From: Dictyostelium discoideum
Lineage: Eukaryota
Assembly: GCA_000004695.1 (NCBI GenBank)
Contig: CM000151.3
Span: forward strand, 4,704,001-4,768,000
Length of the DNA stretch: 64,000 nt
Reading direction: 5' to 3'
Made by a program: the position numbers and the translations under genes
Shown: one piece after another, positions 33,491-44,865 of the stretch
Position numbering within the stretch: the first letter of the stretch is position 1
Layout of the letters: each line of letters starts with the position of its first letter
The notes under the pieces: generated by a model
The model's database searches: none
What the model was told of the DNA's origin: nothing
The model's input: the letters and a program-made list of their open reading frames with translations, nothing else

Positions 33491-34615
33491 ATGAAGGGTT
33501 CAATATTCTTACTCTTTATTTTCCAAATATTTAAATTTTCATCAAGTTATTCACATTATCCACATAAAAACCAGTTTTCATTTTATTCACCTACAAGTTT
33601 ATCATTTACATCTTCAAATTTCTCAAGTGGTAGTGGTAGTGGTAGTGGTGGTGCTAGTGGTAGTGGTGGTGGTGGTAATATTGGTAATAAATACAATAAT
33701 GAAAATAACAAAATTAATGAAGAGATTATTATTTCATGTATATATGATGACTATTTAAATTTTCAATACCAAGATTTAAGTAAGATCAATGGTATTTTAA
33801 TTAATGGTTTCAATAAAAATAGTACGAGTGATATATTTGTTAAAAATGTAAACTCTCAATATTATGATCAAAGTGATAGTAGCAATAATTTTCATTATTT
33901 TGATCAAGAGAATAATAATTTATCTCCACAATCTCAATTAAATAAGGAATGTCCATTCAATTTAAAGAATCCAATTCCAACATTTTCAAATTCAAGATAT
34001 TCAATCAAAATTGATAAATCATTTGATGTTTCTGATGAAATCACTTTAGTTTCAAAAAATAATTTCTTAAATTCAAATTCTGTAAGTTGTTTTCATTTTT
34101 ATAAAATTTTAAAAATATAATCTTCAATATTAATTTTTTTTTTTTTTTTTTTTTTTTAAAAAAGATTTCAAAATTAAAATTTAAAGTTTATATTCCAAAT
34201 AAAATTACCAATAAAATTAAAATACAACTTATAAATAGTTTAACTGGAAATAATGGTCCTAAAATACCATTGTTAAACACAATTGAAAATAATTATTTAA
34301 AACCATTCCCATGCCATCAATGGTTAGATGCATTTATTTTATTTAACGAAACCAATTATTATAATAATAATAATAATAATAATTATCCAATTTTTTACAA
34401 TGGTCTTAAAATTACAAGTAGTAATAGATCCCTTGATAACACTTGGATTGACGAAGTTTATATTGATGAAATTAAATTAATTTCAAACAATAATAAACAC
34501 AATAGTAATAAAAATGATAGAAAAAGAAATATTGATCAAACCAATGAAATTTATGATAAAATAAATATCAATAATAATAATTATAATATTAGAAAATTAT
34601 TTAGTATCTTAGATG

Positions 34616-34673
<58 letters not shown>

Positions 34674-35297
34674 AATTATTAATAGTTATAATACAATTAA
34701 TTCAAGGGCTGATATTGCATTAGGTGGTAATAGTGATGATCAAAGTGACATTTCATACTCTATCATTTGTAATAAACATATGAATGAATTGAATAATGAA
34801 ATCAAATGGAGATTTGAAGAAGGATCATCTAGTAGTTTAGTTGAAACAGCTAATGGGAATTTAATATTGGAAGGTTCAATTCATAGTATTTCAAAACATC
34901 AAGCTGATTATAATTTTAATTGTAAAACCAATTGGAAAATTAGAATTGAATTTTCACCAATTATCGATGATTATCAATATAATGGCAGAATGGAATTGGC
35001 ATCATTTGCATATACTAAAAATGGTGGTCCAATTGATACACTTTATTGGAAATATTATAAATTTGTAAATGGTTATTTAAGTGGTTTAGATTGTAATCAA
35101 GGTAAATTAATTCAAATTAATAATAATAATAATCATAATGAAAATAATAATGGAATTTTACAAATTGGTATTGGCGCAAATAATAAAAATGGTAGATTTG
35201 GTTTATCAGTATATGGATTACAGTTATCAATTGATAATGACAATACTTTTAATATTAATGTTGATTTAAATAACCAAAATAACCATTTATCTAATAA

Positions 35298-41300: not shown

Positions 41301-44300
41301 TCTCAAACGTGCAAAAGAGGTCAACTTTGAATATTCCTTTGATCTCTATGGTAAACCTATGATCGCTAAAACAAATGAAACAGGTGATTATTGGATCAAT
41401 AATATTCCACCAGGTCTTTACATTGCAAAATTCTTTCCACCAAATGATACAAGATTCACCATTCAAATGAATGATAATAGTGCAAATGTTTTCGGTTCTT
41501 CATATGCAATCTATTTGTTCTATAAAGTTCCAGGTATTCATCCATACAATTTAAAAGTTGATATTGGTGCGGTGAATGCAAGTTATGTTTACTCAAAAGT
41601 TAATGCAGGTTTATTAAAAGGTTTAGTTGATATTCGTCTTTATGCAGTTAGTGGTTATGTTTACAACGATACCAATTCCAATGGTATTAGAGATCCCGGT
41701 GAAAATGGTGTTAATGGTACAATTGTAACATTATTGGATATAAATGGTAATACAATGGTTGATGCTGATTCTTATCCAATTAATTCATATACAACGGGTC
41801 CTGATGGATACTATAAATTCGATGATTTCTCATTTGGTAAATATATTATAACATTTAGCGGTGTACCAGATTTAATCTATCAATTCTATAAACCAGATGA
41901 TCAACAACATTTAAATCATTCCACACTTTCAAATATAACAATTTGGTCACCAGATAATCCAATGGTTGTAAATGCAACACTCAGTGATCATGTCAACGCT
42001 CAATATATTCTTAGAGAACAAAATAAAGGTATTATTAGAGTGATCACTTATGCAATTGGAGGTAAGGTTATACCAGATTTTAAAAACACAACATATAAGG
42101 ATAGTGGTTACGCGGGTGGTGCTGTTATAGTTCAATTATACCGTAACAATTCAATAGCAACAGATCTTCGTGGTAATCCAATACCATCGGTATTGACCAA
42201 TGTATTGACTGGTGAATATCTTTTCGATAATGTACCAATCTTAGAGGGTTATCAAGTAATGTTTTCAAGTCCACCACCAGGTTGGATTTTTGAAAAGTAT
42301 AGAATCACTCAAACCCCATTCATTCAACTTGATCTTTTACCATCATTCAATTTACCAAAATCAAATCCAAAATTAATAGATAAGAAACTTTATCCAAATA
42401 TCTTTGCAACCTATGGTGTATTGGATCAAGATACTATTATCTCACCCACTCTTTTTGGAATTGGTAAGAATACATTCATTGATGTTGAAAATAGTGGTCT
42501 CGAATCAATACCTTTAATTCCATTAGGGGGTGTAGTTGTAACACTTTACAATAGTGTATTCGAAAGAGTATTTGATGCATTTGGTAATTTGGTTAAAGAG
42601 AAAACCACGGGTGAAGATGGTGAATATTCTTTTGAAGACCTTTACTCTGGTCAATATATTGTTCATTTTGGTTTAGTTGAAGGTTATTCATTCACTCAAC
42701 AGTATGCTGGAACAGATCCTGAAATTGATTCGAATGCAAGTCCTGTAGATGGTTATTCAGAAATCATTCAATTAGATTCAATGAATAATGAATTGATTTT
42801 AATACCATTGGAATCTAGAAACAACACATTATTCTGTGATCCAACAATTGATGGTGGTTATGTTTCACTCTCACCTCAAGGTTTCATTAGTGGTATGACA
42901 TATATTGATTATAATGCTGATGGTGTATTCACACCAAATTCACGTGATAAACCATATCCAAATATTACGGTTTCAATCTACACTGGTGATGATAGTAGAT
43001 TAGTTGCAACCGCTCAAACTGATAAGAAAGGTTTTTACTCATTCTCACATTTATTCATATCCACTCAATATCAAGTTGTTTTCTCAGGTATTCCTCAAGG
43101 TTATTATACATCATTCCAAGCTGATACTGTACAATTCCCAATCGCAACAAAGACTGGTGTAAATTTAGGTATCATTAAACCATTGGAATATTGTCAAGAT
43201 GATATTAAAATAATTACAACTTGTTTTGTTCGTGGTGATTCAAATGATGATTTACCAGCTGTCGTTCAATTCCCTTATACTGCTTATTCCGATTTGAATG
43301 GTGATAATGGACAAAAAGTTGATCTAGTAACAATGAGTGAAACTAAAACAGTTTATGGTCTTGGATATGATCGTAAAGAGAATACAATCTATCTTTCGCC
43401 ATATAAAAAGCAATTTTCTAGTTTAAATTCAAAAACTTCATCAACTATCTTTAAGAAATCATTATCAACAGGTGCCCTATCAGCTTATGTAAATTTAGCA
43501 ACAGTTTTAGGTTTTGACTTTTTAGCTCCAAATGGTAAAGTTTATGGTGATTCTCAAACCTATCGTGTATTATTTGGTGATTTGGATATTATTGGTGATT
43601 ATATTTGGGTTACAAATCTTTATAGAAACATTGTAGTTAAAATACCATTACGTCAAACTCCAACTAGAGAAAACATTAAATTAGTAAACATCACTCATAA
43701 TTGTGGTCCAGATCCATTTAGAATCTTTGGTTTAGGTTATAATGGTTCCAATGTATTCGTTGGTGGTGTTTGTGAAGGTTCAGTTTCGAAGGATATAAGA
43801 AATGTAATTGGTGTAATTAAAGTGATTAGCTCTGATGAAACTTCATTCTCTGATGTTTTAACAATTCCAATGAATTATCCACGTGGTCGTTTACAAACTA
43901 GAATCATGTTTTTAAATGATATGACACCCATTTTCTCATCGGTTCAAAATTCAACATGGCAAGTTTGGAATGATACAGTGGGTAGTTTTAAACCTCAACC
44001 ACAGATAACCGATATTACATTCATTGGCGATGGTGGTAATATGGTAATATCAATGAAAGATCGTGAAGCTGATAGTCAAAGTGTTACGCCTGCAGGTGAT
44101 ATATTAATGGCATGTAAAGATTCAAATGGTGTTTATCAATTGGAGAGTGCTGGTGTTTGTGGTGGGTTAATTGGTACAAATCCAATTTCAATTGGTACAA
44201 TGATTGAACAAGGACCAGGTGGTGGTGAATTTTTCGATGACAATTTTAGTGATCGTGATTGGCAACATGATGAAACCACTTGGGGTTCTTCATATTATTT

Positions 44301-44865
44301 ACCAGGTAGTGGTGAAGTCATTGGTGGAGCATACGATCTTTTATCAACCAATGAAGCAATTGTAAAACATTGGTCAGTCTATAATGGTCGTGTTTTATAT
44401 GGTTTCATTTTAATTCATGGTGCTGGTTTAGATTATGTTTTCAATAAAGTTAATGGTTTAGGTGATATGGATGCAAATTGTAGATTACCAAATACTTATA
44501 TTGGCAATTACGTTTGGTATGATCTAAATAAAAATGGTCTTCAAGATCCAAATGAAAAAGGAATGGCAAATATTACTGTTCAATTATTTAGTGCCGCTAA
44601 TTCAACATTCATTAATTCAACTCTAACCGATTCCTCTGGTAATTACAATTTCCAAGTCATTTCAGAGTTTAAATATAGAGTTCATTTCGTTGCTCCAAAA
44701 GGTTTCACTTATTCTCCTATCGTTACTGTTAGTAGTGATCCTAATGATAAAAGAGATTTGGAAAAAATCAATAGTTTACCTGATTCAAAAGGTGACGCAT
44801 ATTTCTTTGCTAATGGTAATGGTGAAAATACTCAAGATATTGATTGTGGTTTTATAAGAATTTAA
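33491..44865 (+). CDS. Giant secreted/cell-surface protein (~3763 aa), colossin-like. It has a signal peptide, a Cys-rich EGF-like region, a Pro/Thr linker and ~16 tandem SdrD-B/CnaB-type domains. Exons 33491..34081 and 34165..44865.
   Basis: Exon 1 (MKGSIFLLFIFQIFKFSSS...) ends at a TCT|GTAAGT donor in phase 0. The acceptor AAAAAG at 34163 joins in frame to the 3531-aa ORF. The repeating unit is ~110 aa: IGxxVWxDxNxNGxxDxxExGVxGVxVxL...(T/S)DxxGxYxFxxLxxGxYxVxFxxPxGY (e.g. [90 protein letters not shown]). This is the SdrD B-like fold common in bacterial adhesins, and Dictyostelium colossins are built from it (established knowledge). Confidence 0.8.

Follow-up and report, generated by a model that had tools for sequence, protein, structure and literature searches.

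The 64,000-nucleotide stretch of Dictyostelium discoideum DNA analysed here (assembly GCA_000004695.1, contig CM000151.3, positions 4,704,001 to 4,768,000 of the forward strand; 'the window', in whose coordinates all positions are given) carries at 33491..44865 a gene for a giant protein, and we may ask what kind of protein this is and where its modules came from. A first-pass annotation, made from the DNA letters, described it as a colossin-like surface protein built mostly from bacterial-adhesin-type repeats. The answer that we consider the likely one is a colossin-family gene of two exons, encoding a secreted, unanchored modular protein of 3763 amino acids (aa) in which a calcium-stiffened strut would carry binding ends. 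From the N-terminus, the order is a signal peptide, two domains named N1 and N2, four-Cys modules with a Pro/Thr-rich linker, 15 SdrD_B domains (R1 to R15) interrupted twice by Ser/Thr-rich linkers, a six-bladed β-propeller and a 16th SdrD_B domain (R16).

The gene and its SdrD_B rod

The gene model consists of the following features:
33491..34081 (+): exon 1, aa 1-197, leading from the start codon through the signal peptide and a Ser/Gly tract into N1, of which it holds the first part; a GTAAGT donor begins at 34082
33491..33547 (+): probable signal peptide MKGSIFLLFIFQIFKFSSS, aa 1-19, recognized by reading the sequence
34082..34164 (+): AT-rich GT..AG intron of 83 nucleotides, with its acceptor AG at 34163-34164 and a gap-free P0015 alignment over the junction
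34165..44865 (+): exon 2, aa 198-3763 and the stop codon, in the in-frame joined reading frame

The joined exons (33491..34081 and 34165..44865) translate in frame into 3763 residues with one terminal stop, reproducing exactly the length and the single intron of the first-pass annotation. That annotation placed the intron right after a signal-peptide exon; the single intron stands, and exon 1 is more than a signal peptide, since its 197 residues include the Ser/Gly tract and part of N1. A homologue of 3513 residues, P0015 (16 repeats and a propeller, 49.7% identity over the full length), aligns without a gap over the splice junction (...NLFNSKNVKELNFKIYLPNK versus ...NFLNSNSISKLKFKVYIPNK), and the splice model is therefore right. 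A stop-free frame of 3566 codons would be expected by chance, given the composition of exon 2, with a probability of only about 1e-128, and the gene is therefore under selection.

All recognisable domains of the protein are of bacterial type, and the gene might on this ground be taken for a bacterial contaminant, for a product of mis-assembly or for a pseudogene in decay. This artefact reading is effectively refuted already, and we give it almost no weight: the repeat region has the AT-rich composition of the amoeba (32-34% GC within a window of about 20-35%), the gene has a spliceosomal intron and its product contains poly-Asn runs, actins and a tgr-family gene flank it, the 10.7-kb frame is intact, and the architecture is common to two full-length homologues, P0015 and the more distant P0124 (3937 residues, 19 repeats and a propeller). 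These dictyostelid neighbours (the actins and a TgrO1-like immunoglobulin-like protein) and the shared architecture also bear out the label 'colossin-like'.

By their profile scores, the repeats belong specifically to the SdrD_B family. The Pfam model SdrD_B (PF17210) matches 15 stretches of the protein and scores 713 bits (E=4.8e-219) against a cut-off of 29.7 bits, and other models of the transthyretin clan lie far lower (CarboxypepD_reg, the next best, at 214 bits; SpaA at 152 bits). Cna_B (PF05738), the name given to these repeats in the older literature (PMC3188802), is not among the Pfam families reported at E<=0.01 for the whole protein, for which SdrD_B is the best. Moreover, R16 is directly similar to solved Staphylococcus aureus SdrD B domains (10ps, 8vdk and 4jdz; E=2.7e-26 to 4.6e-11). 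The SdrD-B specificity, which the first-pass annotation had put forward as refutable by an unrelated fold, is thus upheld by the margin of 713 over 214 bits together with the R16 match.

With a profile derived from the repeats of the protein itself we delimited 16 units, in agreement with the approximate number first proposed. When single repeats are scanned with Pfam, R1 (36.4 versus 29.7 bits), R2, R4, R7, R14 and R15 exceed the SdrD_B cut-off. R13 alone gives no Pfam SdrD_B match; it scores 27 bits (E=1.3e-10) against the self-built profile and has a positional partner, R13, in P0015. All units below were found with the self-built profile, and 'Pfam alone' marks those also above the Pfam cut-off on their own; the two linkers were identified by composition:
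36196..36516 (+): R1, aa 875-981; Pfam alone (36.4 bits)
36643..36975 (+): Ser/Gly-rich and Thr/Pro-rich linkers, aa 1024-1134
36976..37272 (+): R2, aa 1135-1233; Pfam alone
37414..37692 (+): R3, aa 1281-1373
37810..38115 (+): R4, aa 1413-1514; Pfam alone
38248..38532 (+): R5, aa 1559-1653
38695..38988 (+): R6, aa 1708-1805
39202..39423 (+): Ser/Thr-rich linker, aa 1877-1950, splitting the rod into R1-R6 and R7-R15
39562..39831 (+): R7, aa 1997-2086, with a deletion in the calcium loop; Pfam alone
39931..40227 (+): R8, aa 2120-2218
40378..40665 (+): R9, aa 2269-2364
40783..41154 (+): R10, aa 2404-2527
41212..41508 (+): R11, aa 2547-2645
41641..41931 (+): R12, aa 2690-2786
42049..42333 (+): R13, degenerate, aa 2826-2920; positional partner in P0015
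42454..42744 (+): R14, aa 2961-3057; Pfam alone
42880..43164 (+): R15, aa 3103-3197; Pfam alone
44494..44862 (+): R16 including its closing strand DIDCGFIRI, aa 3641-3763; PDB match at E=2.7e-26

The repeats are spaced by about 123-149 residues from start to start. Most units close with a [DN]-x-G-[LFI]-[IY] strand just ahead of the next unit, and the rod is therefore made of essentially contiguous domains, interrupted by one longer gap behind R1, another behind R6 and a third at the insert between R15 and R16. Ten of the 16 repeats keep an intact acidic calcium loop (D-x-N-x-[ND]-G-x-x-[DE]..E) where the domain begins. Through these loops the SdrD_B domains would bind Ca2+, by analogy with the staphylococcal B domains, each of which coordinates three Ca2+ ions and unfolds only above 2 nN (PMC6232131).

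The array of 16 repeats is old and conserved in position between homologues. Pairwise identity between repeats averages 28% (range 17-46%), Tandem Repeats Finder detects no DNA array at the repeat period, and even the most conserved 72 nucleotides of the repeats are just 64-76% identical, in line with the divergence at the DNA level noted at first. Each repeat finds its best match in the P0015 repeat of the same number (41-73% identity), compared with 31-49% for its best match within its own protein. Because the repeats pair in this way by position, the array predates the split of these genes, and the first suggestion of an old array gains support. In P0124, repeats 9-18 are matched in order by R6-R15 with the exception of R10.

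Is the rod held at the cell surface, as the first-pass annotation had it? Nowhere in the protein is there a hydrophobic segment of transmembrane or glycosylphosphatidylinositol (GPI) type (no 19-residue window with a Kyte-Doolittle mean above 1.6), and a scan of its sequence found neither LPXTG nor an (SD)n run. The C-terminus is hydrophilic: ...DIDCGFIRI is the closing strand of R16 and the chain stops there, as it does in P0015 and P0124. Because there is no membrane anchor, we prefer to see the product as a secreted, unanchored matrix protein, which fits better than the surface protein first proposed.

A cell-surface adhesin, kept on the amoeba's own surface for cell-cell or cell-substrate adhesion in the way of the microbial surface components recognizing adhesive matrix molecules (MSCRAMMs) of Gram-positive cocci, seems improbable to us. 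It would agree with repeats of the MSCRAMM B-domain type and with the LPXTG or PEP-CTERM-like anchors of some bacterial relatives (P0002, P0004 and P0021; P0154), but the hydropathy limit and the hydrophilic end at the R16 strand make a transmembrane or GPI anchor unlikely here, and LPXTG is missing. Non-covalent retention through the terminal modules is conceivable. No family of the MSCRAMM ligand-binding N2N3 A region is among the Pfam matches of the whole protein or of its N-terminal pieces.

The protein shares with staphylococcal SdrD and SdrG (B domains, PDB entry 4JDZ) the repeat family PF17210, the resemblance of R16 to SdrD, the first calcium loop, Ca1, where it is kept, and, by analogy, a likely role as a calcium-stabilized mechanical spacer (PMC6232131). 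It nevertheless has 16 B-type domains instead of 2-5, in units of about 135-150 residues compared with about 110 in the staphylococcal proteins, and its gene is eukaryotic, with an intron. Since the A region, the Ser-Asp region and LPXTG are all absent, the protein, as judged from its sequence, is not an MSCRAMM.

The propeller between R15 and R16

The first-pass annotation had seen a non-repeat insert of about 430 residues at 43190..44480; it is there, and measures 436 residues:
43186..44493 (+): six-bladed β-propeller, aa 3205-3640, between R15 and R16, predicted from a structure model and its fold matches

The insert has no sequence match in Pfam, NCBIfam or the PDB. The propeller was modelled with AlphaFold from 42 sequences, a run with three sequences having been poor (pLDDT 47). 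The fold matches of the model comprise binding-type propellers (YWTD, NHL and Kelch) as well as Ca/Zn enzymes (SGL lactonases, PON1 and PAL), at 6-14% identity, and the best of them are non-catalytic YWTD propellers. It should be noted that the likeness to the YWTD class (low-density lipoprotein receptor class B; nidogen, 1NPE, and LRP4/LRP6) lies at the level of the six-bladed fold only. We did not retain the insert as a member of the YWTD family: identity is 8-12%, neither the insert nor any of the 42 family members matches Ldl_recept_b in Pfam, and the insert extends over about 436 residues with long insertions, compared with about 260.

Two conserved cysteines, 3207 and 3636, mark the two ends of the propeller and are kept in its family, bacterial members included. 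The pair could form a disulfide that clasps together a module set into a rod. Further residues invariant in the family are, in the numbering of the insert, R179, W261, D276, R293 and W396, together with an HDE motif and NGLGD. An RGD tripeptide also lies near the start of the propeller (aa 3220-3222; 43231..43239); the aligned bacterial position reads RPG. Since the homologues from bacteria thus do not keep it, RGD is probably there by chance.

A word-indexed search with the insert returned two bacterial proteins, and the profile made from these and the insert was run against 1.84 billion cluster representatives. It recovered 3601 representatives at E<=1e-3, 1890 of them at E<=1e-30. The family as described here takes in the related proteins P0003-P0152 and loci L001-L080. 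No Pfam model falls on the propeller domain in any of 42 members, 27 of which have a C-terminal von Willebrand factor A (VWA) domain, and several end in LPXTG-type signals. We further scanned bacterial genomes, one per species, with a bacteria-only alignment. The loci confirmed in this way number at least 525 and are distributed over Anaerolineae and other Chloroflexota, Streptomyces and other Actinomycetota, Bacteroidota, Acidobacteriota, Cyanobacteria, Planctomycetota and Thiothrix. On these sequence searches, the propeller defines a family of very large size among the secreted proteins of bacteria, for which Pfam and NCBIfam have no model; it is often combined with VWA or SdrD_B domains and with LPXTG-type anchors.

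In the reading as a strut with binding ends, the propeller is a predicted binding head. It might instead be an enzyme, a Ca-dependent lactonase, lyase or phytase-like hydrolase that the SdrD_B rod would display in the matrix as a catalytic head, as the Ca/Zn enzymes among the fold matches of the model could suggest. We regard this as unlikely, since the top fold matches are the non-catalytic ones, identity to any enzyme does not exceed 14%, no enzyme family of Pfam or NCBIfam matches, and the usual partner domains in bacteria, VWA and SdrD_B, are adhesive.

N-terminal domains and Cys-rich region

The part of the protein that precedes the rod contains two β-rich domains, N1 and N2, and a Cys-rich region:
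33725..34488 (+): N1, aa ~79-305, split by the intron; an alignment shows its conservation in P0015 and P0124
34669..35328 (+): N2, aa ~366-585; alignment with homologues, profile and phmmer matches in bacteria
35335..35943 (+): Cys-rich region, aa 588-790, with 27 Cys in some 6-7 four-Cys modules (Cys spacing)
35923..36078 (+): Pro/Thr-rich linker, from aa 784 to ~835-838 (composition)
36079..36189 (+): last Cys module, aa 836-872, with 5 Cys (Cys spacing)

The N-terminal region has no Pfam or PDB profile match, and a single-sequence search for its homologues came back empty. A profile of three sequences recovered bacterial relatives for N2 only (P0153, P0154 and P0155), and the amoebal N2 alone reaches 68.6, 41.5 and 29.2 bits, respectively, against them by phmmer. 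The motifs of N2 are AY..NGGPID..W.YY (also NGGPIDPSTW.YY) and QIG.GANNKNG. P0153 holds two copies of N2 and P0154 ends in a PEP-CTERM-like tail. P0155 is located on a 188-kb contig of Verrucomicrobiota (locus L081, 4001..5689), where the N2-like domain is directly followed by SdrD_B and the neighbours are surface proteins with PKD and SdrD_B domains. Going by these matches, N2 is a small unannotated domain family that also occurs in secreted proteins of bacteria. For N1, the same profile search yielded no bacterial relatives and there is no Pfam or PDB profile match; its pattern is reminiscent of a carbohydrate-binding module, an assignment that nothing we tested supported.

The cysteines are spaced as C-x4-5-C-x5-C-x9-14-C (5,5,14 / 4,5,10 / 5,5,10 / 4,5,9 ...), and the whole protein contains six to eight such small modules. 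The first-pass annotation counted about 40 Cys in an epidermal growth factor (EGF)-like spacing. Both statements need amending: the two Cys-rich stretches hold 27 and 5 Cys, no EGF model of Pfam matches the region even at E<=1 (TILa and Lustrin appear below threshold), and the four-Cys module is not the six-Cys pattern of EGF. The PT-rich stalk of that annotation corresponds to the Pro/Thr-rich linker at aa 784-838.

At the place of the Cys-rich region, P0124 has about 14 nearly identical four-Cys modules (aa ~415-900) separated by Thr/Pro linkers, with the consensus C-D-x-x-V-T-C-A-x-G-W-H-C-x-V-x-N-G-x-P-T-C. These modules only just pass the threshold of the fungal cellulose-binding family CBM_1 (24.7 versus a cut-off of 20.6 bits). 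The Cys modules of the window protein do not match CBM_1 in the Pfam scan, and we make no claim that they bind cellulose, the match being confined to P0124.

Role, origin and surroundings of the gene

Taken together, 16 SdrD_B domains and mucin-like Ser/Thr/Pro linkers would form a long, tough and partly jointed extracellular strut, stiff and mechanically very stable, with a length that we roughly put, as an estimate and not a computed value, at 60-80 nm. Binding heads would be placed at one end by the N-terminal domains and the Cys modules, and near the other by the propeller. Such heads could tie the strut to the extracellular matrix (slime sheath, stalk tube or cellulose) or to other ligands. 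[quoted passage not shown]

How did such a protein come to an amoeba? SdrD_B-type domains accompany the propeller in 81 of the top 150 proteins of its family (445 domains in total), and the closest relatives outside the amoebae, P0127, P0146, P0150 and P0152, have the order SdrD_B-propeller-SdrD_B. In tblastn, R15, the insert and R16 align with bacterial loci (among them L061, L064 and L059) as one collinear segment (query 5-632 of 635, at the C-terminal end of the protein) at 27-30% identity, and the Cys pair at the propeller ends is shared. These bacterial proteins differ by having no N1, no Cys modules and no poly-Asn tracts; many have domains of the VWA, GEVED or Peptidase_C25 type, or sortase or PEP-CTERM anchors, instead. 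Sequence comparison has thus shown bacterial relatives for three module types: N2, SdrD_B and the propeller. Because both N2-SdrD_B and SdrD_B-propeller-SdrD_B already exist in bacteria, these orders suggest the transfer of a composite gene and not of one domain. The gene would descend from a bacterial gene for a multi-domain surface protein and would later have been 'eukaryotised' by gaining its intron along with tracts of poly-Asn, the Cys modules and linkers of a mucin-like kind. We put forward tentatively, and with somewhat more doubt than conviction, that the whole core (N2, the SdrD_B rod and the SdrD_B-flanked propeller) arrived as one bacterial surface-protein gene, as opposed to having been built up from a single transferred Cna_B domain, and that the propeller family may provide a Ca-dependent glycan-binding or catalytic head. 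If this is true, the Dictyostelium protein would be a tractable eukaryotic model for the bacterial propeller family.

Several points weigh against the account given here of the strut, its heads and its origin. The calcium loop is degenerate in six of the 16 repeats (R2, R4, R7, R13, R14 and R15), and parts of the rod may therefore not bind calcium. The fold matches of the propeller model, all at 6-14% identity, span binders and enzymes, and the head may therefore bind or catalyse. For N1 and the Cys modules, we detected no bacterial relatives. What suggests en-bloc transfer is the shared domain order, and what suggests the matrix role is the parallel with colossin A together with the missing anchor.

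The bacterial-type repeats of colossins are already known, and this main claim opens no new question. Cna_B/colA stands among the candidate horizontal transfers in Table 2 and the text of PMC3188802, the colossin Cna_B repeats are listed as a candidate of bacterial origin in Table 2 of PMC4334915, and a 2026 preprint (bioRxiv 10.64898/2026.03.01.708701) again cites CnaB as a candidate of Eichinger 2005. What the first-pass annotation called noteworthy, the bacterial origin of the repeats, had therefore been published as a transfer candidate. The window protein resembles the colossins of these papers as a giant secreted dictyostelid protein in which Cna_B/SdrD_B-type repeats, presumed to have come from bacteria, predominate; PMC3188802 and PMC4334915 differ in covering the Cna_B repeats only, without the propeller, N2 or the four-Cys modules. 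What we add is the recognition of the insert as a six-bladed propeller, the bacterial relatives of N2 and the domain order common with bacteria. In addition, the array offers a natural set of B domains that have diverged from one another, in part with a degenerate calcium loop, in which to test the retention of calcium-dependent mechanical strength. As for its name, the gene may be colossin B, annotated at 3763 residues; we take this as a lead and not as a result.

No second gene of SdrD_B or colossin type is present in the 64-kb window. In the A-rich region just upstream of the start codon, a unit of 113 nucleotides is repeated in tandem at 33223..33458 (2.1 copies, 89% matches), with long runs of poly-A behind it. 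The gene has as its immediate downstream neighbour, in the same orientation, an open reading frame of 1179 residues (45133..48672, +), rich in Leu, Lys and Ile, with no Pfam match. Further away, an 831-residue frame at 10057..12552 (-) carries TgrO1-like immunoglobulin-like domains (PF24612, E=3.6e-32) of the dictyostelid tgr family. Two actin genes, at 14776..15906 (-) and 18018..19148 (+), stand head to head and encode identical proteins of 376 residues; their 99.8% nucleotide identity suggests that they were recently duplicated or underwent gene conversion. They are followed by a divergent third actin of 374 residues at 19516..20640 (+), and a P450 gene is also present in the window. Finally, two stretches of the 1200-residue frame at 26779..30381 (-) match the C-terminal domain of FtsX-like permeases (PF02687, E=1.8e-27), a membrane domain of bacterial type, and the frame is possibly another gene of bacterial ancestry.

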